Shown here one piece after another: positions 7,790 through 33,734 of a stretch of 64,000 nt of DNA (within the stretch, counting starts at the first letter, position 1; each line of letters opens with the position of its first letter). Under the pieces are notes generated by a model. The model did not search any database. It had not been told where the DNA came from and worked only from the letters and a program-made list of their open reading frames with translations. Location: positions 19,943 through 83,942 of the IMG/VR virus record IMGVR_UViG_3300028399_000005; one strand, given 5' to 3'. The position numbers and the translations under genes were made by a program. This stretch comes from a virus.

Positions 7790-7910
7790 GGGGCAGTAGC
7801 TCAGCCTGGGAGAGCGCGCGAGTAAAGCCCCCTTGCGCGCGCCACTCTGCGCACAGCAGATTGAGGGGGCCTCAGTGTAGTCGCGGGTTCAAATCCCGCC
7901 TGCTCCACCA
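7790..7910 (+). tRNA. tRNA-Ala-like RNA with expanded, non-canonical anticodon domain
   Basis: Acceptor GGGGCAG/CTGCTCC (G3-U70), A73, encoded CCA, D arm GCTC-AGCCTGGGA-GAGC, T arm GCGGG-TTCAAAT-CCCGC; upstream TTTATAAA and downstream T7; ~60 nt occupy the anticodon arm position. Confidence 0.85.
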
Positions 7911-21920: not shown

Positions 21921-23900
21921 ATGAACGAACAAGACGAATCATTCGACCCAGAGAAAGTAGTAGCGAAAATTCTCGATCTTGCGCCGAAAACAGTCCTCAT
22001 CATGGGAAAGATCGGCGAGGACGAAAGAAAGGCGCTTGAGCGCCACATCAAGGAAGAATTCAAGAAGAGCGCCGAAAAGGAGAACGCCCACGCAGAACTA
22101 CTCGGTTTCGCGGACTACTACGGACGGCACCAAAAATACGAAAAAACGAAGAAAGCATTCGGCGACCGAATCGTCGAAGCCCTTGACAGAATCGCAACAA
22201 ACCAAATAGTCGACATTCTCGAAGTGTACCGCCCATTGTTGCTCTCGAAATATTACAACTTTACGCACTTGAACAAAAAAATAGACGGGAGGATCGCAGA
22301 CATTCTCGTCCCCACGAATTTCGAGCGAGTCTTTCTATCTACACTGTTCGTCGGCGAAATAACGCACTTGGCAACAGGCGCCGAGCTCGTGGGGAGTATT
22401 TCCCGTCCAGACCTCGAATTCAAGGCGAAAGAAAGCGATTTCGACGTTCGGGCGTTTTCCACGCACGAACTCACGTTCGCAACGGCGGTCGGTTTCACGC
22501 TCGAAAAAGTGTTCAAGCGTTTGCTCGCACGCGTTACGCAAACGGCGTATGAGAACGACGTGCCAAACGTCGTGGCGACCGTTGATCGGTTCGTAGCGTC
22601 GATTAAAGGACGAGAACTCTTGCTCGAGCTCGTCGAAGACCCTGGCTTCGACTTGCAAGTGCGGGAATGGGAGAGCCTCGGAATGCTCGATGAGTCAGTC
22701 ATCGATCCTCGAGAAGCCGTCCGCGAGCACGCCCTTCAAGAACCGACGGCGTCTTTCCGAACGTTGTTCTTGCCCTTCGACTCAAGGTTTTTCTCCCGCG
22801 AGAACAAACAACGCATGCTCGACCTCTTCGAGCATGATAAAGACGGTGCTGTCCTCGTCGGCGATAGCTACGTGGCCTTGCGCGTGCTTGCGGATGACGC
22901 TACCATTAACAAGAGCTTCGTCCAGACCATTTTCATCGATCCGCCGTTCAACAAGCCGAACGAGGCGAACTACAAGTATAGCGTCAAGATCGGCGACGAC
23001 GTCTGGATTGCCATGCTCCGCTCAAGGCTTCGGCTCGCAAGGGAGCTCTTGCACGAGACGGGCTCGATCTTCGTTCGATGCGACTATGAGGGCTCTCACT
23101 ACGTCCACCTTCTTCTCGACGAGATTTTCGGCAAGAAGAATTTCCGCAACGAAATCGTCGTCAAGCGCTCGAACCGCATCAAGAGCCCGACGTCTCGCTT
23201 CTTGTCGTGGCACGACGTTGTGTTCTTCTATGCGAAAAGAGCGGACAGAGCTTTTTTCAAAGAGCTTGTCGTCGATGAAGAGGCACGCAATGGCTGGCGG
23301 GGAATGGACATGCCAGGCGATTCTTACGAGGTCGTCCCCTCGGGGCTCGAGTCATTATTCGAGCCGTGGATGCTTGAGAAAGACTCTTATGAACAGACAG
23401 TTACTCGTGCGAGGCTGTTCTTCGGAAAACCTATCATGCCCCCGCCAGGGCGCAGATTCCCTTCCCAAGCAAAAATCAACGAAGAGATCGAGAAGGGCAA
23501 TATTCGCTTTTCTCGCTCGGGGCGCCCGTTGATCCGCAAGCGTGGCTACAAGGTGCTTACCGACGATTGGACGGACATTTTCGGCTACAAGAACCGCTTC
23601 GGGTTCACGACGGAGAACAGCGAGGAACTGCTACGACGCGTGATCATGGCAACTTCGAAGGAAGAGGACGTTGTGCTCGACTTTTTCGCTGGTAGCGGGA
23701 CGACCCTTGCCGTGGCGCACAAGCTCGGGCGAAAATGGGTCGGCGTAGAAATCAACGACCACGCTTTCGAGGTGCTCATCCCCCGCATGAAGAAAGTGCT
23801 GTTCTACGACGAAGGAGAGATCAGCTCGTTGAAAGAAGTCAGAGAAAAATACAACAAACGCCGAGCTGGCGGGGTCTTCTACTATTACTCTTATGAATAG
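21921..23900 (+). CDS. beta-class adenine DNA methyltransferase (Mod-like) with long N-terminal extension
   Basis: IFIDPPFN, KNFRNEIV, VLDFFAGSGTTLAVAHKLGRKWVGVE. Confidence 0.9.
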   Translation: MNEQDESFDPEKVVAKILDLAPKTVLIMGKIGEDERKALERHIKEEFKKSAEKENAHAELLGFADYYGRHQKYEKTKKAFGDRIVEALDRIATNQIVDILEVYRPLLLSKYYNFTHLNKKIDGRIADILVPTNFERVFLSTLFVGEITHLATGAELVGSISRPDLEFKAKESDFDVRAFSTHELTFATAVGFTLEKVFKRLLARVTQTAYENDVPNVVATVDRFVASIKGRELLLELVEDPGFDLQVREWESLGMLDESVIDPREAVREHALQEPTASFRTLFLPFDSRFFSRENKQRMLDLFEHDKDGAVLVGDSYVALRVLADDATINKSFVQTIFIDPPFNKPNEANYKYSVKIGDDVWIAMLRSRLRLARELLHETGSIFVRCDYEGSHYVHLLLDEIFGKKNFRNEIVVKRSNRIKSPTSRFLSWHDVVFFYAKRADRAFFKELVVDEEARNGWRGMDMPGDSYEVVPSGLESLFEPWMLEKDSYEQTVTRARLFFGKPIMPPPGRRFPSQAKINEEIEKGNIRFSRSGRPLIRKRGYKVLTDDWTDIFGYKNRFGFTTENSEELLRRVIMATSKEEDVVLDFFAGSGTTLAVAHKLGRKWVGVEINDHAFEVLIPRMKKVLFYDEGEISSLKEVREKYNKRRAGGVFYYYSYE

Positions 23901-24658
23901 CGCTTTTTGGGTTTGCCGACCACTCGGTCTCGCCATAAAAACAGCCCGCTCGTTTCCTTGCTCCCGAAGTGGTTGAACTCGCTGTCGAAAAACGTCGAGA
24001 GACGGGCGTTCTCCCATCCACCGTTGATTCTGGCGAGCTTTTCATAGACGGACGGCACGGGGACATCGTGCTCGACAATGTAGGCCCAGACGTCTTTCGC
24101 CGTCCACTCGGCGATCGGGAACGCCGTGTCCGTGAACCCGCTCTTTTTCGGTTCTATCCACGTTCCCGTGCGTCGCTTCGCCTCGGCGATCCGCGCTCGG
24201 CGCTTCTGGGACTCTTGGGATCGTAGACCGAGGAAACAGACGTCCCAGCCGTGGCGTTTCACGGCTTCCGACAAACGGGGGAAAAACGGCGATTTAGCGA
24301 TGTGTGATTCTCTTGCGGACGGTTTATCGCCCCCAGGCCTTTTCTCGTAACTATGGCGAGAAAAAGGGGCAATCTGGTCAATTCCTTGCAAGATCTCTTT
24401 CTCGATCCAACGGGGGATCAACCATTCGCCGTAGTCCCAGTGGCGAACCCAGACGTCCCTCTTGTACTGGACGACGAGATGGAGCATCGCCATGGAGTCC
24501 TTCCCGCCAGAGACGGCGACATAGGGGTTTTGATAGCTCGCCAAGACTCGGCGAATGAACGAGCGGGACGTGGCTACCTTGCGCCGATACTCCGACGTGT
24601 TCGTGTGTAGGAGAAAGCCAGCGATGACGGGTTTCGGCATGAATTTGGACGGTTTCAT
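23891..24658 (-). CDS. cysH: CysH/PAPS-reductase-like protein of type IV-B CRISPR-Cas
   Basis: VAVSGGKDS PP-loop, GLRSQES..R, PIAEWTAKDVWAYI; last gene of the csf operon. Confidence 0.88.
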   Translation of the reverse strand: MKPSKFMPKPVIAGFLLHTNTSEYRRKVATSRSFIRRVLASYQNPYVAVSGGKDSMAMLHLVVQYKRDVWVRHWDYGEWLIPRWIEKEILQGIDQIAPFSRHSYEKRPGGDKPSARESHIAKSPFFPRLSEAVKRHGWDVCFLGLRSQESQKRRARIAEAKRRTGTWIEPKKSGFTDTAFPIAEWTAKDVWAYIVEHDVPVPSVYEKLARINGGWENARLSTFFDSEFNHFGSKETSGLFLWRDRVVGKPKKRYS

Positions 24659-25449
24659 TGCGCAAGACCTATTTTTTGCTTTACTTGGGCGGAGAGCTCG
24701 CACTTTGCGCCGACGGGGACGCACGCGTCGATGTTTCGTCTGTCCCAGTACGGCGGTTTCCAGGCGAGGTAGGCGAAGTCGTCGTATTCGTCGCAGTAGC
24801 GCGTCGGGATGGGTCGTAGCGCTTCTTTTGTTTTCGGGTTCCAGAAGCTCGCCTTGTCGGGGTTTGGCTTGATCTCGACATGGCTGACTTCGCCGAAGCC
24901 GTAGGCGGTCTTTTTCCCGAGCCCCGTAACGTGTGCTATGAGCGATAGCAAGGAGTAGGGCTTCGCCTCGACGAAGACGTCGGCGTATCGGGCGGAAATG
25001 TAGGGGATTCTGATCGAGTAGTTCTTGAACGTCCCAGAGCCGAGGCTGATCTTGCTCTTCTTCCCGCCGATCTTGTGGGCGTCTGGCTCGTGGAAGCGTT
25101 TGTAAACATACTCGATGTTCGCCCGCTCCTCGACGTTGATGAGCTTCCCGTCGGCGTCCTTGAATAGGATGACAGAGGAGTGATAGAAGTACGTTTGGCG
25201 GATTGGCATGGGCAACGCTCGGACGCGCTTTCCGAGGGGGTCGTTCGAGGGGAGCATGTAGTAGTCTTGCCCGAGGGTGAGGCGGAGCAACATGTGCGCC
25301 ACGAGCCCGTCGAAGTTGATCCACGGGTGCGTGATCATGACGGGCGCTTTCAAGTGGAACCGCACGAGGACGTGCGCCCACTCTTCGCCTTTGAGCGTGG
25401 CGTAGTACTCCGTCGGCGTGTCCGCGAGCAAGTATTGCCGTAGGAACAT
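24655..25449 (-). CDS. csf3: type IV Cas5 (Csf3) RAMP
   Basis: INFDGLVAH, SGTFKNY, Gly-loop GLGKKTAYGFGEV, LRPIP, PPYW. Confidence 0.88.
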   Translation of the reverse strand: MFLRQYLLADTPTEYYATLKGEEWAHVLVRFHLKAPVMITHPWINFDGLVAHMLLRLTLGQDYYMLPSNDPLGKRVRALPMPIRQTYFYHSSVILFKDADGKLINVEERANIEYVYKRFHEPDAHKIGGKKSKISLGSGTFKNYSIRIPYISARYADVFVEAKPYSLLSLIAHVTGLGKKTAYGFGEVSHVEIKPNPDKASFWNPKTKEALRPIPTRYCDEYDDFAYLAWKPPYWDRRNIDACVPVGAKCELSAQVKQKIGLAQ

Positions 25450-25453
25450 AGCG

Positions 25454-26344
25454 TCATCCCTTCTTCTTGAACGATGAGAAATCGATTTTCTGGGCATCAA
25501 TCGCCTGCAAGAGCGCCAAGATGTCGTCTTGATTTTCTTCGACGAATCTTAGATACGTTTCTTCTTTTCCGAGTGCGCTCAAGGCAGTCTTGTCGTAGTC
25601 TGGACGCAACGCGCCGAGCCCGATGCTTGACTTCCCGCCGACGTAGCAATTGTTCTCCCAGATTCGGAACGCTCTTCGGAAGAACGCTTCTTCGACGGGC
25701 GTGGGGTCTTCGAGGACGAAAGCGTGCGTCAGCCTCGTGCCAGGGATCAAGACCTCGTATTCGACGAGCATTTGTTGTGCTTGTTCGCCTTCGTCCCGCT
25801 CGGCTCTGAGCTCGTCTTTGCGGGTCTGGTAAGTGTCGCTCATGAGCTCGTGGAAACTGAATTCGGCGCCCCTAACCGTTGAAGGGTCGAACGTGATCCC
25901 TTCGAGCTCCTTGCAGATCGGGAAAGCGTTCATGACCTTGAGCTTTCCCGTGAACGCTTGGTTGAGGAAGGACGAGCCGAAAACACTAATGGGGGGCAAG
26001 AGGTATCGGATGGTCTTCCTCGCTTCGAGGTTGAGCGTCCCGCTGTCCTTCGAGGACACTTTCTCGAGGTTCCCGCCCGAGTAGAAAAAGTGGTAGAGTC
26101 TGGCGGTCTCGAATCGGTGTCTTTGGCCCTCTCTGTAGCCCACGAGGTCGAGGAAGTCCTTCATGACGAGGCGTCGCAGGCGCCCTCTGATTGCATTTCC
26201 GCTGATGTAGGGCACTTCTTGGATCCCCTTGTTCGTGATCATTTCGATTCTTCGGAACCCGATCGTGGATCCCGTTTTTTCGTTCCCGCCGTGGTGGACG
26301 GGGGAAAGAGCTGTCAATATTCCGCTGATTTTAATTGTCTTCAT
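25454..26344 (-). CDS. csf2: type IV Cas7 (Csf2) backbone subunit
   Basis: TALSPVHHG, VPYISGNAIRGRLRR, YEVLIPGT, VGGKSSIGLG. Confidence 0.92.
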   Translation of the reverse strand: MKTIKISGILTALSPVHHGGNEKTGSTIGFRRIEMITNKGIQEVPYISGNAIRGRLRRLVMKDFLDLVGYREGQRHRFETARLYHFFYSGGNLEKVSSKDSGTLNLEARKTIRYLLPPISVFGSSFLNQAFTGKLKVMNAFPICKELEGITFDPSTVRGAEFSFHELMSDTYQTRKDELRAERDEGEQAQQMLVEYEVLIPGTRLTHAFVLEDPTPVEEAFFRRAFRIWENNCYVGGKSSIGLGALRPDYDKTALSALGKEETYLRFVEENQDDILALLQAIDAQKIDFSSFKKKG

Positions 26345-26370
26345 TCTTTTTTTCTCAACTCCTTTTGTTC

Positions 26371-26706
26371 TTACTTTTCATGGCACGAGCAATAGCAACC
26401 GAAGGCTTTGTAGCTCACGTTGCATCGCTCGGTGCATCTTCTGTCCGAGTGATGGCGAAACTCGAACTTTTTCTTGAGCGTCCACTTGACCTTTCTCGGC
26501 GAGTAGCCTACCGAGAAAAGCCCTTCGTGGGTCTTTTCTGTGGCAACGATCTCTTGGAAAAGCTCGTATTTCTCGAGCTCGCCGACGAGCGAGGAGACAA
26601 CTTCCCGCAAGCGGTTCGTGATCTCGCTCGCCACGATTTGGGCGAGGAATACAAGATCGTCCCGTGATTCTTCGCCGTGCATTGTTTCTTCCGTTTCTTC
26701 CGTCAT
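26371..26706 (-). CDS. extra ORF inside the type IV-B operon with Cys/His-rich C-terminus
   Basis: HHSDRRCTERC...CYCSCHEK; ATG overlaps the cas11 stop. Confidence 0.6.
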   Translation of the reverse strand: MTEETEETMHGEESRDDLVFLAQIVASEITNRLREVVSSLVGELEKYELFQEIVATEKTHEGLFSVGYSPRKVKWTLKKKFEFRHHSDRRCTERCNVSYKAFGCYCSCHEK

Positions 26707-27131
26707 TCTTCATCATCCTTTGCTTTTCGTTGCTTTTCCTTCCGCTTCTCGCGTAGCAACTGCGAGTATCTTCGAGCGAGCATCACGCAGAGCTGGGACT
26801 CCGTGCGGACGGTGTCGAGGAACTCGTCGGCGTATTTCTCCGCCTCGAGGATGAGCTCTGGCTCATCATGGAGCGCTTGGATGCTCAGCTGGTTGCAGAG
26901 CTTGTTCACGAACTTTGCAACGGTCGGCTTGCGGGAAGAGTTCTTGATTCTGTGCTCGAAAATGTCCGTGGCGATCTTGGACGTGCTCATCTGGTGCCAG
27001 TTCACTTGGTAGTAGACCCTTCCGAGAAGGGCGGAGATGAGCTCGTACACTCGCTTTTTTCTTGGCGAGACCCACGAGAGGTCTTGGCCTGGCAATATTT
27101 CTTCGAGGCTAAAAGTAGATTTCTGCGCCAT
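26703..27131 (-). CDS. cas11: Cas11-like small subunit
   Basis: Small helical protein (VNW...DIFEHRIKNSS...FVNKLCNQL) between csf1 and csf2. Confidence 0.7.
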   Translation of the reverse strand: MAQKSTFSLEEILPGQDLSWVSPRKKRVYELISALLGRVYYQVNWHQMSTSKIATDIFEHRIKNSSRKPTVAKFVNKLCNQLSIQALHDEPELILEAEKYADEFLDTVRTESQLCVMLARRYSQLLREKRKEKQRKAKDDEE

Positions 27132-27879
27132 AGACTTCGCCTTCTTCTTCTTTCTTTCGTTTTTTCGATTGCTTCTCGGGCTTCTTAGTATCTTTGCGGA
27201 GCGTCTTCATGGTCGTGAGCTTCTTCGGCGTATCCGTGCACTTGACGACGAGCTCCCAGGCGGGGTTCCCCGCGAACTTCTTCGCCTCGTAGTAGTGCTG
27301 TATCGCCCCGACCTCGACGAGCGTCTCGATGATCGAGCTGTTGGTCTCGAGCGTTTCGAGGCGCTTCTTCCCGAAAAATGGCATGAGCGCGTCGACGAGT
27401 CCCGTGATTTTCTCGTAGCTTCGTGGCGTGAACCGTGCGACGTCTTCTTCGAAGATCACGACGAATCTGTTGATTGACCCCTCGTTCGACGGCGTGTTGA
27501 TGGCGAACGGGTTCACGATCCATCCGTGCTTCTTGAAGCTCTTCGTTACGAAGATTGCGAAGGGCTCGTTTCGAGCGAGCGCTTCGGTGAGGACGTCCCG
27601 AAACTCGTTGAACTTGAACGCCTTGAACCTTGCGGGGGAAACAACCCAGTTCGTTTTTCGGACTGTCGCTTCTTTGAGCGCCCCCGCACAAAAAACGCAG
27701 AGCCCGTGGCCCGCTTTCAAGTGCTGGAATCCCGTGAAATTGCCCGAGACTACTCTCTTGATGTCCACGAGCTCGTCGACGGTCTCCATGCAAATATAGC
27801 ACCTACCGTGGTGCTTTTCGCCCGAGATTGGCTCGATCATTTTTGCTTGTGCGAGCAGGCGTGGTATTGTGAGAATCAT
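27109..27879 (-). CDS. csf1: Csf1 (Cas8-like) large subunit
   Basis: CYIC...LCVFC Zn motif, EPFAIFVTKSFKKHGW; first gene of the csf operon. Confidence 0.8.
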   Translation of the reverse strand: MILTIPRLLAQAKMIEPISGEKHHGRCYICMETVDELVDIKRVVSGNFTGFQHLKAGHGLCVFCAGALKEATVRKTNWVVSPARFKAFKFNEFRDVLTEALARNEPFAIFVTKSFKKHGWIVNPFAINTPSNEGSINRFVVIFEEDVARFTPRSYEKITGLVDALMPFFGKKRLETLETNSSIIETLVEVGAIQHYYEAKKFAGNPAWELVVKCTDTPKKLTTMKTLRKDTKKPEKQSKKRKKEEEGEVYGAEIYF

Positions 27880-27928
27880 CAAGCAATCGACGATTTATCG
27901 AGAATCGCTGTATAATAGCCTTGCTCGC

Positions 27929-27973
27929 CGTTATAACGATACTTTTCTTTCTTTAGGTGAACTTGTTATAACG
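27929..27973. promoter_or_regulatory. two CGTTATAACG-type operators serving divergent promoters (csf operon and small ORF)
   Basis: cgttataacg at 27929-27938 and tgttataacg at 27964-27973, each ~11-12 bp from a TATA-like box. Confidence 0.7.
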
Positions 27974-28144: not shown

Positions 28145-28216
28145 AGTAGGCAAAGAAAGGAAAAAAGGGCGGAGCAGAGCTCCGAAAGGCAAAGGCGGAG
28201 AGGAAGCGGTAGGCGC
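28145..28216 (-). terminator. cassette A 3' element: CU-hexamers, CGGAGC-TCT-GCTCCG hairpin and pyrimidine tract
   Basis: Homologous element at 28535-28608. Confidence 0.6.
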
Positions 28217-28348
28217 TCAGAGCTCGAGGTTGTCGAAGAATTCGCTAAATAAGACCGCTAAGAGCTCATCGTCGAACTCTGACAGCGCCTTCGCTTCGTA
28301 AAGCTTTGAAGAATTGTCGTCTTTTGAGAAGTTGTCGTTCTCGCTCAT
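28217..28348 (-). CDS. small acidic protein, cassette A (43 aa)
   Basis: ATG after the conserved leader and promoter. Confidence 0.55.
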   Translation of the reverse strand: MSENDNFSKDDNSSKLYEAKALSEFDDELLAVLFSEFFDNLEL

Positions 28349-28402
28349 GGTACATCCCTGTCGTCGGGCGGGTCTCCTTCCCCCTTGCGGGGGTAACCCA
28401 CC
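28349..28402 (-). ncRNA. conserved structured 5' leader, copy A
   Basis: GGUGGGU-UA-CCCCC-GCAA-GGGGG-AAGGAG-ACCCGCC-CGACGAC. Confidence 0.7.
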
Positions 28403-28534
28403 AATATAATATAGGAAGGAGAAATATAAAAAGGTTGTGGTAAAGGTAATCAATATGTTTGTATTTTTCTGATAAAAAATAAGAGAAACTTGGCAGGCGG
28501 TTTATTACAAAAAAATGACAAAAAATAGCGCGAC

Positions 28535-28608
28535 GGAAGCGGTAGCAAAGAAAGAAAAGAAGGGGCGAAGCAAAGCTCCGCAAAGTTAGGAAGGCAAAGT
28601 TGAAGGGC
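28535..28608 (-). terminator. cassette B 3' element: CGGAGC-TTT-GCTTCG hairpin and pyrimidine tract
   Basis: Homologous to 28145-28216. Confidence 0.6.
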
Positions 28609-29016
28609 TTATAAGTCCAGTTTTCTACCGTATGCTTCGAGGAGCGCCGTAAGCTCCAAATCTATTAGGCCTCTCTCATTTGAGAGGAAGCCCAATAGAT
28701 TCAAGGTATGGCGGGCGTCTAAGAAGTCGTCCACCTTCGATCGGAAGGCGATCCGAAGGAAGGTATAGACGATGTGGTAGGCGAGGTCTCGGGCGGTCAT
28801 GCCCTTCGTCTCATAGACCGCTTGTGCGAGCTCGAAGGCTCTCACAATGGTCTCGTTCATCTCGGCTTCGAACTCTTCTGGATTCATGCGTTGCGATAGC
28901 GCAGACGCAATGAAGTCCTGGAAGAGCCCGTCTATTTCGTTCAAAGCGTGCTCGTCTATCGGGGCGTCGCCCGATAATGGACGGACACGCTTAGCGTCGA
29001 ACGTTTCGTCTGCCAT
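28609..29016 (-). CDS. hypothetical protein, cassette B
   Basis: MADETFDAK start after the conserved leader. Confidence 0.65.
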   Translation of the reverse strand: MADETFDAKRVRPLSGDAPIDEHALNEIDGLFQDFIASALSQRMNPEEFEAEMNETIVRAFELAQAVYETKGMTARDLAYHIVYTFLRIAFRSKVDDFLDARHTLNLLGFLSNERGLIDLELTALLEAYGRKLDL

Positions 29017-29071
29017 AGTCCATCTCTCCGTCGTCGGGTGGTGTTCCTTCCCCGCATGGGGGTGCACCACC
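29017..29071 (-). ncRNA. conserved structured 5' leader, copy B
   Basis: GGUGGUG-CA-CCCC-CAUGC-GGGG-AAGGAA-CACCACC-CGACGAC. Confidence 0.7.
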
Positions 29072-29394
29072 AATATAATATAGGAAGTGGTAATATATAA
29101 ACTTTGTGGGAAATTGGTAGATAATTGCACTCTAAAAGTGTTGCGAGGAGCAAGAAAACGAATCTCGCCTGTCCGCCCGCTGGGGGTGGCGGGTGTTTAC
29201 GTCAATCAAACGTCTATTCTTTTAGACAAGCGACTGATTGGGGTACTATTTACGCCAATTTGAAAAGTTGCTAATTAATAAAGGAATTAATTAACAAAAC
29301 TTGCAGGGAATTCTGCGTGCGGAAAAATATAATCATTAAAAAACGGCGATCGATCGAATCAAGGAAAGAAGAAGGCGAAGAAAGGCGGGGTTTG

Positions 29395-29796
29395 TCAAAG
29401 GTTGTTATAAACTATCTCGAGCGCTCTTCGGATTGTGAGTGTCTTCGGTGGGCGCTTGTAAGGGGCGTAGCCGACGTCCCATACGAGCGTCCCTCGAATG
29501 CTAACCCGTGCACTCCCCTCGAAGAGGAGCTCGTCGTCTGGACTGTACGCCTTGACAACGATGTCGTGCACGGTAACGCTGTATTCCGTGCCAGGCCATG
29601 GTCTGCCCTTGTAGCGCTCGACTTCTACAAGGGCGATCTCGAGCCGTACCGAGCCCTTGTTCGAGTCCACGAAAAGCGTGAGCTCGTCAAGGGCGTCGTA
29701 GTCGTCGCGTAATACGAGGGCTACCCCCTCGAAGCCGTTCCCAGCCACGAAGGAGTAGCCCTTCAACTTAGAGTTATAGGCTAACTTCATTCTCAT
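29395..29796 (-). CDS. hypothetical protein, cassette C
   Basis: MRMKLAYN start after the conserved leader, with GGTGA SD. Confidence 0.65.
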   Translation of the reverse strand: MRMKLAYNSKLKGYSFVAGNGFEGVALVLRDDYDALDELTLFVDSNKGSVRLEIALVEVERYKGRPWPGTEYSVTVHDIVVKAYSPDDELLFEGSARVSIRGTLVWDVGYAPYKRPPKTLTIRRALEIVYNNL

Positions 29797-29848
29797 AGTA
29801 TCACCGTCGCCGAGCGAGTCTCCTTCCCCCATAAGGGGGTAACCCGCT
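29797..29848 (-). ncRNA. conserved structured 5' leader, copy C
   Basis: AGCGGGU-UA-CCCCC-UUAU-GGGGG-AAGGAG-ACUCGCU-CGGCGAC. Confidence 0.7.
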
Positions 29849-29952
29849 AATATAATATACGCAACGGTAATATATAAGTTTTGTGGGAATTTGGTTAGAA
29901 GATGCGTAAAAAATATGAAAAAAATGTGCAAAAATATGAAGCATAAATCATG

Positions 29953-32581: not shown

Positions 32582-33734
32582 ATGGGAATCCGATTCATTC
32601 CAAAAAAAGAATGTGATGTGGGTTTAGCTCGAAATGGAGTATTGGACTTCGGTAAAAAGAAACTTCCTACTCCCTTTCTTTGGTTTGGCTTATCAAATCG
32701 AGAATCTGTAGTTTTTCAAAAAACAGTATTTGAAAGTGCGATGATCGAAGGAATCATGGCAAATGCATACGACCTTATGTTTCAAGATAGGACTGGCTCT
32801 CGAACTGAAATGGTCAAAGAATTGTCTCGCTCAGGGCTCGTAGTAAAATGTGATAGCGGGGGTTACCAAATACTTAAGAGAGGGAAAAAAATCGATCGAT
32901 CCAAAGTTCTGAGGTTTCAAGAAGATTTGAATTGCGATTTGATGGTTCAACTCGATTATCCCATATTAGGTTCTGATCCTCGAGAACTTAAGAAAAAACA
33001 TATTGATAAAACCCTCAATAATCTGGAATATGCTTTGAAAACAGCTAATCGTCCAGAAAGAATTGTTCCAACTATTCATGGACACGATTCCGAGTTATTG
33101 CGTTATCAAGCAAAAAAAAATTACAGATCTCCTTGGCGAAACCCCGCCTATTATTAGTGTTGGTTCTTTGGTTCCTCTACTTTTTAATTCAAAAGGAGCA
33201 AAAGGGGTTGGAGGTAAAGCAAAAGCTTTGGAAGTTATAAGGATTGTTCGAAAACTTTTTCCAAAAACAATGATTCATGCTCTCGGTATTGGGGGCGCTC
33301 TTACATATCTCGCTATATATTTTGGCGCAGATAGTTTCGATAACAACGGTTGGATACAAAAAACTGGTTTCGGCGTAATTCAAGTTCCTGGATCATCGGA
33401 TCGGTTTCTTGGAACCCCGCCGAATGGCAGAAAGAAAATTGATACTGACGAAATAGCCTATCATAGATGGCTTGAATGTGTGTGCCCAGCTTGTAGGAGT
33501 TCTTCTAATAGAAGTGTATTCATTGGACGAGATGAGAGCGCAAGGCTAAATCGAGGAATACATAACGCCTATACATTTCAAGCGGAAATTTGGAGAGTAA
33601 GGAGATATATCCATGAAGGCCAATATATCAACTTTATAAAAGAGAGAATGAAAAATTCTATATATTTGCGGATTTTACAAGAGGAATTAAATCGTAACGA
33701 TCATGAAAAAATATTTAACGATGTGTGGTTTTAG
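32582..33734 (+). pseudogene. tRNA-guanine transglycosylase (TGT/DpdA-like) gene interrupted by a +1 frameshift in an A9 tract
   Basis: LPTP, DSGGYQ and QLDYP in the first ORF; HALG, GADSFD and CVCPAC..H in the second; A9 at 33112-33120; visibly AT-richer than its neighbours. Confidence 0.8.

Follow-up and report, generated by a model that had tools for sequence, protein, structure and literature searches.

A covarying hairpin shared by the predicted 5′ leaders of three gene cassettes in an uncultured tailed archaeal virus

The 64,000 nt stretch of DNA analysed here (the window) comprises bases 19943-83942 of the linear, 83,942 nt IMG/VR record IMGVR_UViG_3300028399_000005, which is estimated to be 77% complete. 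On its minus strand lie three small gene cassettes, next to a set of type IV-B genes, and each of these cassettes starts with a copy of the same RNA hairpin. The order of elements is identical in the three cassettes: a promoter, followed at once by the 35-36 nt hairpin, a linker with the sequence CGRCGAC, a Shine-Dalgarno (SD) sequence and the ATG of an open reading frame (ORF; Table 1). Cassettes 1, 2 and 3 have leaders of 54, 55 and 52 nt, in which the hairpin and the ATG are separated by 18, 20 and 16 nt, respectively, and the repeated hairpins are spaced 669 and 777 nt apart. A preliminary description of this DNA had reported the three hairpins and connected them to the type IV-B operon; its positions and sequences for the hairpins, all on the minus strand, proved to be correct.

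Table 1. Cassette elements and the adjoining type IV-B genes, in window coordinates.
Feature	Position	Strand	Details
Hairpin 1 (36 nt)	28367..28402	-	GGUGGGU / UA / CCCCC-GCAA-GGGGG / AAGGAG / ACCCGCC; 62.9 bits
Hairpin 2 (35 nt)	29037..29071	-	GGUGGUG / CA / CCCC-(C)AUGC-GGGG / AAGGAA / CACCACC; 50.7 bits
Hairpin 3 (36 nt)	29813..29848	-	AGCGGGU / UA / CCCCC-UUAU-GGGGG / AAGGAG / ACUCGCU; 61.7 bits
Single-stranded linker 1	28360..28366	-	CGACGAC
Single-stranded linker 2	29030..29036	-	CGACGAC
Single-stranded linker 3	29806..29812	-	CGGCGAC
Class-1 promoter, cassette 1	28403..28444	-	36/37 consensus positions; BRE-like CCACAACC, TATA TTTTTATA, AT-rich proximal box CTATATTATATT
Class-1 promoter, cassette 2	29072..29113	-	34/37 consensus positions
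Class-1 promoter, cassette 3	29849..29890	-	30/37 consensus positions
Cassette 1 ORF	28217..28348	-	43 aa, very acidic, orphan; weak SD AGGGAU upstream; ATG at 28348
Cassette 2 ORF	28609..29016	-	135 aa, all-helical, orphan; SD GGAGAG
Cassette 3 ORF	29395..29796	-	133 aa, beta-rich, orphan; SD GGUGAU
Terminator-like hairpin + T/C-rich run after cassette 1	28170..28184	-	
Terminator-like hairpin + T/C-rich run after cassette 2	28565..28581	-	
Type IV-B gene set (context, outside the element)	23891..27882	-	
csf1	27109-27882	-	PADLOC Csf1, 9.5e-21
cas11	26703-27131	-	PADLOC Cas11, 9.2e-24
csf2	25454-26344	-	PADLOC Csf2, 4e-65
csf3-like	24655-25500	-	
CysH-like C-terminus of ORF	23891-25381	-	Pfam PAPS_reduct

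The core pattern CCCC-N3-7-GGGGAAGGAR occurs three times in the window, compared with 0.02 occurrences expected, and none of 100 shuffles reached this count; there is no further copy in the remainder of the 83,942 nt record. The fold common to the three copies consists of an outer stem of 7-8 bp, an internal loop, an inner stem of 4-5 bp and a 4 nt apical loop. At 37 °C, the calculated energies of hairpins 1, 2 and 3 are -22.1, -16.8 and -19.1 kcal/mol, with z-scores of -3.1, -1.8 and -3.4 relative to shuffled sequences, and at 75 °C they amount to -9.0, -6.2 and -6.3 kcal/mol and are still negative at 90 °C in the fold model. The hairpins are predicted to stay folded up to 90 °C and the SD/AUG stretch downstream of them to be unpaired from 60 °C; the ribosome binding site, which is located 7-9 nt beyond the hairpin, is predicted to be open. 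According to the fold model, the element would thus withstand growth temperature and leave the ribosome binding site accessible.

The sequence differences among the copies preserve this fold. The outer stem comprises 21 cells (7 pairs in three copies), each of them a standard pair; three pairs changed on both sides, two changed on one side, and two are invariant. An exact per-column permutation gave P = 2/81 = 0.025, which is near the best value attainable with three sequences, so that the compensatory outer-stem changes noted in the preliminary description are borne out. MAFFT and the model built from its alignment misplace the gap in copy 2, and the pair statistics were hence computed from the window coordinates. 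Position 8 faces position 29 as U.G in copies 1 and 3, and in copy 2 a C faces an A. U.G and G.U pairs within the outer stem are valid in the sense (minus-strand) RNA only, since the other strand would give A-C mismatches. Invariant are the inner G/C stem, the A of the 5′ loop, the AAGGA and the CG-CGAC of the linker, and the internal loop YA/AAGGAR is kept, whereas the apical loops of the three copies have nothing in common. Copy 2 carries a one-base deletion in the inner stem and retains the fold. The core count, the fold, the covariation and the negative Rfam result given below together support the view that a structured, covarying and so far undescribed RNA motif is present at the 5′ end of the three cassettes.

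A shared peptide encoded by the hairpin region was considered and rejected: the 1 nt deletion shifts the frame of copy 2 relative to copies 1 and 3, the 5′ GUG frame of copy 1 ends in a UGA that overlaps the AUG, and copy 3 is without a 5′ start codon. Two public gene calls start inside the hairpins, P0001 (153 aa, 28609-29070) with a GTG in the outer stem of cassette 2 and P0123 (145 aa, 29395-29832) with an ATG in the apical loop of cassette 3; these are probably over-extensions caused by open frames. Across hairpin 2 and its linker, P0001 encodes 18 residues that agree fully with the window translation, which fits conservation but is not significant.

All three hairpins directly follow members of one promoter class, termed class 1, for which a consensus scan of the whole 83.9 kb record found 17 sites. 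The cassette version is 42 nt long and is composed of a CCACAA resembling the B recognition element (BRE), a TTTATATA box and an AT-rich proximal box ending in ...TATATTATATT. Downstream of the 17 promoters, 11 transcripts would start at (t)gATG, three would have a leader of 5-8 nt with the sequence GAGGAA, and three lead into the hairpin, which agrees with the earlier remark that the other class-1 genes are leaderless or nearly so. The hairpin is hence found in all three of the long-leader transcripts and in 0/14 of the leaderless or short-leader ones. Because the spacing from the promoter to the gATG is invariant across the 11 leaderless sister promoters, the +1 position is predicted at the G of gATG, which corresponds to the first base of the outer stem in the cassettes. 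Judging from this promoter geometry, transcription likely starts at the first paired base of the hairpin, and the mRNA would have no single-stranded overhang at its 5′ end.

The terminator-like elements of cassettes 1 and 2 are homologous, and, since such hairpins end the cassettes, we regard the cassettes, at the level of sequence, as self-contained units of promoter, leader, ORF and terminator that are predicted to be transcribed separately. Conserved 5′ and 3′ flanks are common to the three units and surround ORFs that, as claimed previously, are not related to one another (for cassette 2 against cassette 3, BLASTP gave E = 0.67). No match to the cassette proteins was found in Pfam, PADLOC, PHROGs or the PDB sequences (cassette 1 was queried with one extra N-terminal codon). 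The cassette 2 protein has one homologue, with 93% identity, and for the cassette 3 protein the only full-length match was the protein itself. The AlphaFold2 models were poor, with a predicted local distance difference test (pLDDT) score of 66 for cassette 2 and 48 for cassette 3, and in a Foldseek comparison of the cassette protein models with the PDB there was no match at E <= 0.001. The spacer between cassette 3 and the promoter of cassette 2 (29114-29394) is an unusually long, AT-rich non-coding stretch of ~280 nt that holds a G/C hairpin of the form CCCGCC...GGCGGG.

We searched for the motif in several further datasets. A scan of the window at the Rfam gathering thresholds returned only a tRNA at 7790-7907, a permissive scan of 28200-29950 yielded three matches with E values of 3.4-9.4, none of them on a hairpin, and the hairpins themselves had no match at E <= 10 in Rfam, including its CRISPR-DR families. 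The pattern of core plus linker had 0 matches in IMG/VR. Among 401 sampled genomes from the phylum of a Desulfurococcales metagenome-assembled genome (MAG), 63 contained the core, 1-3 times each and never as an array, and a full outer stem was present in 0/29 of the core instances retrieved from these archaeal genomes. The sequencing runs that hold the stretch are two hydrothermal-vent metagenomes only, X1, which is the probable source sample, and X2 from a second vent study, in which a ~90% identical relative on short contigs covers all three cassettes in pieces and shows an in-frame 3 nt deletion at 28308 in the cassette 1 ORF. In this relative, the hairpin 2 region appears unchanged at the level that could be compared. 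The motif is accordingly known only from the window virus and this one relative. Among the pieces listed for X1, none from another contig lay on a hairpin alone, which does not constitute evidence on host repeats. A full-text search of the literature revealed no paper on a shared structured leader in archaeal viruses.

Two groups of candidates from these searches were rejected. The end of the promoter joined to the core retrieved two loci from IMG/VR, with small SD-proximal hairpins that lack an outer stem, on contigs that appear bacterial-phage-like. Core plus linker retrieved 34 loci from the JGI metagenomes, for which the best outer pairing was 6/7 and an archaeal promoter was present in none; several of them represent a repeated soil element. 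Some of the retrieved sequences are of separate interest. Two viral contigs of ~65 kb from one metagenome (L004, 8500-8580, and L005, 1190-1270) share a module in front of different genes, consisting of a terminator, TATATATT, a small CCCC/GGGG hairpin, AAGGAAGGAG and an ATG. It looks like a bacterial-phage expression module and resembles only the inner half of the motif. Five contigs from one soil metagenome (L007, L009, L020, L021 and L033) contain near-identical copies of a longer palindromic element (...CCTTCCCCCATCRAGGGGGAAGG...) with conserved flanks, probably a repeat similar to repetitive extragenic palindromic (REP) elements.

The gene set downstream of the cassettes was confirmed as type IV-B by its Csf1, Cas11, Csf2 and CysH-like domain, with matches to repeat-associated mysterious proteins (RAMPs) and PAPS_reduct in Pfam. 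Between cas11 and csf2 lies a 111 aa ORF (26371-26706) with an acidic N-terminus and a Cys/His-rich C-terminus, for which Pfam, PADLOC and PHROGs gave no family. Cassette 1 and csf1 are 334 nt apart. The palindrome CGTTATAACG, counted with at most one mismatch, has 15 matches in the window compared with 1.8 expected, and copies at 27929-27938 and 27964-27973 are located just upstream of csf1; it appears to mark a second promoter or operator class that is distinct from the class-1 promoter. The cassettes are therefore set apart from csf1 by the terminator-like hairpin after cassette 1 and by the palindromes that csf1 has of its own. A 22 nt stretch inside csf1 (27621-27642) is 82% identical to the core of hairpin 1 (28376-28397), including an exact 11-mer; it lies on the same strand as that core, hence cannot pair with the leader, and may be due to chance.

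The preliminary description had suggested a covariance-model search for linkage of the motif to csf genes. From 170 Csf2 relatives, an alignment of 13 retrieved 29 viral and 12 genomic loci, which were examined with up to 10 kb on each side; this set of 41 is without the closer Csf2 relatives P0004-P0009 (47-58% identity). Our covariance model R1 found the motif in 0/29 of the viral and 0/12 of the genomic loci and matched only its three training sequences, the best non-self matches in the Csf2 loci having E values of 1.9 and 0.55. A structure-descriptor scan of the 29 viral loci likewise detected nothing similar. The recurrence beside csf genes that would mark a CRISPR RNA (crRNA) or handle of the Csf proteins was thus not observed in the loci examined, and there is no CRISPR array in the record. 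With the separate terminator-like hairpins and the CGTTATAACG elements of csf1, these results mean that the proposed link of the hairpin to type IV-B is not supported.

The record encodes structural proteins (a portal fused to a Mu-F-like domain, a tail tube, a baseplate hub, a head-tail connector and an HK97-gp10-like protein) as well as a family-B DNA polymerase, a primase, an XPF-type nuclease, an SNF2 helicase, methylases and a split TGT (queuine/archaeosine tRNA-ribosyltransferase family), and its promoters are of the archaeal type. Because a tailed-virus gene set is combined with archaeal-type promoters, the source is, as judged from its genes and promoters, an uncultured tailed archaeal virus. 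Searches of IMG/VR with Csf2 and the portal revealed no close relative of the virus, tblastn of the portal against phage records gave only matches of <30% identity, and a search with the XPF-type protein, run at an overly strict setting, returned the protein itself and one further match. The TGT is present as two overlapping ORFs (32582-33734), one corresponding to the N-terminal and the other to the C-terminal half of the profile, a split that may reflect a frameshift or a programmed shift. The tRNA call of Rfam at 7790-7907 (42.2 bits, 118 nt) has no counterpart in ARAGORN and may be an intron-bearing or aberrant tRNA-like gene.

The most likely role of the hairpin is that of an mRNA leader with control over stability or translation. 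Two observations guide this reading, namely, that the hairpin occurs only where there is a long leader, and that the 5′ end is buried while the ribosome binding site is free; moreover, a heat-stable fold with the SD/AUG open from 60 °C suits a virus from a hydrothermal vent. The fold, the covariation, the location with respect to the promoter and the accessible ribosome binding site all come from computation. Our tentative preference, held with some reserve, is for a lineage-specific, cis-acting 5′ leader that serves as stabiliser or expression module of three monocistronic viral mRNAs and displays an AGGAG. The outer helix, by pairing the 5′ end of the mRNA, would shield the three leadered transcripts from 5′-end-dependent decay. 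In archaea, 5′-to-3′ mRNA decay by aCPSF2 that is impeded by protection of the 5′ end is described in PMC3792030. The leaderless class-1 mRNAs would not need a hairpin, as the initiating ribosome occupies their 5′ end. The AAGGAR of the loop has a 5 nt match to the SD consensus used in the short leaders of the virus (GAGGAA), and the AGGAG is 26-30 nt from the AUG, which is too far for an initiating SD; in the purine-rich internal loop, it might hold a ribosomal subunit or another factor and could be a STAB-SD-like part. In Bacillus mRNAs, the 5′ stem-loop and STAB-SD stabilisers act in this manner. The stabilising effect, the transcription start and the factor that binds the loop are what we infer from the analysis as a whole.

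Several points weigh against this preference. A stable 5′ helix is all that a generic stabiliser requires, and the invariant YA/AAGGAR loop and the CGRCGAC linker, left unexplained in this way, point to a partner that binds specifically, as in the operator reading below. The stretch is contained in no RNA run, and the start site is derived from promoter geometry. Given three paralogous copies in one genome and one ~90% identical relative, recent duplication may account in part for the sequence conservation. Pairing of the SD-like loop with 16S rRNA may be prevented by the two helices that enclose it, and the protection by aIF2-gamma known from Sulfolobus could be impaired if the triphosphate end is buried.

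A close rival, which we take seriously without considering it likely, is a translational operator: a viral or host RNA-binding protein would recognise the YA/AAGGAR between the helices and block or time the translation of the three genes together. It competes closely because the fixed loop and linker would fit a protein site equally well and because the 18, 20 and 16 nt between the hairpins and the AUG bring the hairpin ends to the edge of the ribosome footprint. The conservation follows the classical pattern of a protein site, with stems that vary with compensation, a free apical loop, and a fixed internal loop with its adjoining G-C pairs, and an archaeal precedent is the binding of L7Ae to a kink-turn (k-turn) in its own 5′ leader, as described in PMC6298567 and PMC5539422. 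The internal loop does correspond to the first half of a k-turn, as in 3/3 copies the 3 nt bulge AAG follows the inner G-C helix, i.e., a Watson-Crick C-helix, on the 3′ strand and is succeeded by a G opposite A. However, it departs from the standard k-turn: in place of A:G, the second tandem pair would have an A facing U in copies 1 and 3 and C in copy 2, one extra purine (G/A) is left over on the bulged strand, and a shift of register breaks outer pairs. Unlike the l7ae leaders, moreover, the hairpin is very stable alone and leaves the SD uncovered, and, with the exception of the Csf proteins, 0/70 window ORFs matched L7Ae, Cas6 or another RNA-binding family in Pfam, a set in which the first 20 kb of the record and ORFs <100 aa are only partly covered. 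The earlier proposal of a translational operator or leader on exchangeable cassettes remains plausible; the type IV-B link that headed the preliminary description is not supported.

It appears improbable that the RNA is linked to CRISPR, either as repeat mimics that soak up host Cas6 or Cas5/Cas7 or as loading handles that place the array-less Csf complex on the downstream mRNA. The length of 35-36 nt is repeat-like, and CRISPR repeats that are processed at the base of their hairpin have a similar form, with a G/C hairpin and then a purine-rich tail. The location directly behind strong promoters is that of the solitary repeat units described in PMC10651486, csf1 is only 334 nt away, PMC7937560 presents type IV-B complexes as having no known natural guide, and PMC10848311 reports one archaeal virus with both a type IV-B locus and a mini-array; in a bioRxiv report, a type IV-B complex assembled on heterogeneous non-CRISPR RNA. 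Against such a role stand the 41 Csf2 loci without the motif, the lack of an Rfam match and of an array in the record, and the terminator-like hairpin and control palindromes that separate the cassettes from csf1. Furthermore, the outer stems of the three copies differ in sequence, which speaks against mimicry of one repeat, each hairpin leads within 16-20 nt into an SD and an ORF with no RNA end or terminator in between, and in the 401 archaeal genomes the core is found at most three times per genome, with a full outer stem in none of the 29 retrieved instances. That the three leaders are Cas-engaging repeat mimics, grasped by the host Cas6/Cas5 or by the viral Csf complex polymerising along the mRNA, is equally improbable. 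No more credit is due to the possibility that the hairpin is a functionless relic of a promoter-leader module that was duplicated twice with the hairpin copied along. The restriction of the motif to the window virus and one relative would fit such an origin, as would the equally conserved adjoining promoter, whereas the outer stem and apical loop are much diverged and every outer pair has nevertheless been kept, three of them via double changes, and the 1 nt deletion of copy 2 was absorbed in the inner stem with the fold intact. We consider a DNA-level element very unlikely, be it an inverted repeat at +1 acting as a transcription-factor operator or a cruciform or single-strand hairpin for cassette exchange like an integron attC. 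The overlap with the predicted start site, a frequent binding place of archaeal repressors, is in keeping with the former, and the conserved flanks around unrelated ORFs look like cassette exchange. Yet the half-sites differ between copies and stay complementary, which a fixed DNA-binding protein would not need, the U.G and G.U pairs make the symmetry single-stranded and sense-specific, no recombinase family was found among the 70 ORFs scanned, and the hairpins lie between promoter and ORF, not at the cassette borders.

Post-transcriptional control in archaeal viruses is almost unmapped, and here one promoter family gives rise to three classes of mRNA, i.e., leaderless, with a short SD leader and with a structured leader, which amounts to a natural experiment on 5′ structure in archaea. 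The leader is compact, predicted to be heat-stable and portable and could be tried in thermophile expression systems. For type IV-B research, the locus is a caution: a location beside csf genes is not evidence of a partnership, and in the 41 further loci that were examined csf2 is not accompanied by the motif. If the leaders did act as repeat mimics, they would blunt host CRISPR immunity and provide the type IV-B complex with defined RNA partners, and they would be a first in two respects, as a natural RNA ligand of a type IV-B system and as an RNA anti-CRISPR from an archaeal virus; the importance of the motif would be high only if the RNA engages Cas or Csf proteins.

Among known systems, the 5′ stabilisers of Gram-positive bacteria and their phages described in PMC3997798 (the aprE and ermC stem-loops, the cryIIIA STAB-SD and the SP82 polypurine tract) share with the predicted leader a stable stem-loop at the extreme 5′ end and a non-initiating, SD-like purine tract upstream of an ordinary ribosome binding site, and they act in cis on any following ORF, as the viral leader would. 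In contrast to them, the present element belongs to an archaeal virus, has no sequence relation to theirs, and carries the SD-like tract in the internal loop of a hairpin and not on a free strand. The k-turn in the l7ae leader (PMC6298567; PMC5539422) is likewise part of an archaeal 5′-leader hairpin with an asymmetric, purine-rich internal loop near the SD and a 3 nt bulge followed by a G opposite A. The viral hairpin differs by the absence of the second tandem G:A pair (A opposite U/C instead) and by its extra purine, and, whereas PMC6298567 describes leaders that fold only upon protein binding and then occlude the SD, it is predicted to be intrinsically stable with a free SD.

With the RNA anti-CRISPRs and solitary repeat units of PMC10651486, the motif shares a structured RNA of repeat length behind a strong viral promoter, among small orphan and possibly anti-defence genes. 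The defining feature of RNA anti-CRISPRs, according to the same source, is likeness to a CRISPR repeat; in the present case, there is no repeat likeness in Rfam (the host's own repeats were not compared), the three copies differ from one another, and they would be leaders of protein-coding mRNAs, not small non-coding RNAs. Type IV-B sets in archaeal tailed viruses have already been published (PMC10848311), with Fuxivirus, a tailed virus of Bathyarchaeia, likewise having csf1, cas11, csf2, csf3 and cysH-like genes. A repeat-spacer-repeat mini-array is described for Fuxivirus, whereas the virus analysed here has no array, and its hairpins lie 669 and 777 nt apart inside gene units. So far undescribed, and confined to a single viral lineage, the hairpin belongs to the broad class of structured 5′ leaders.

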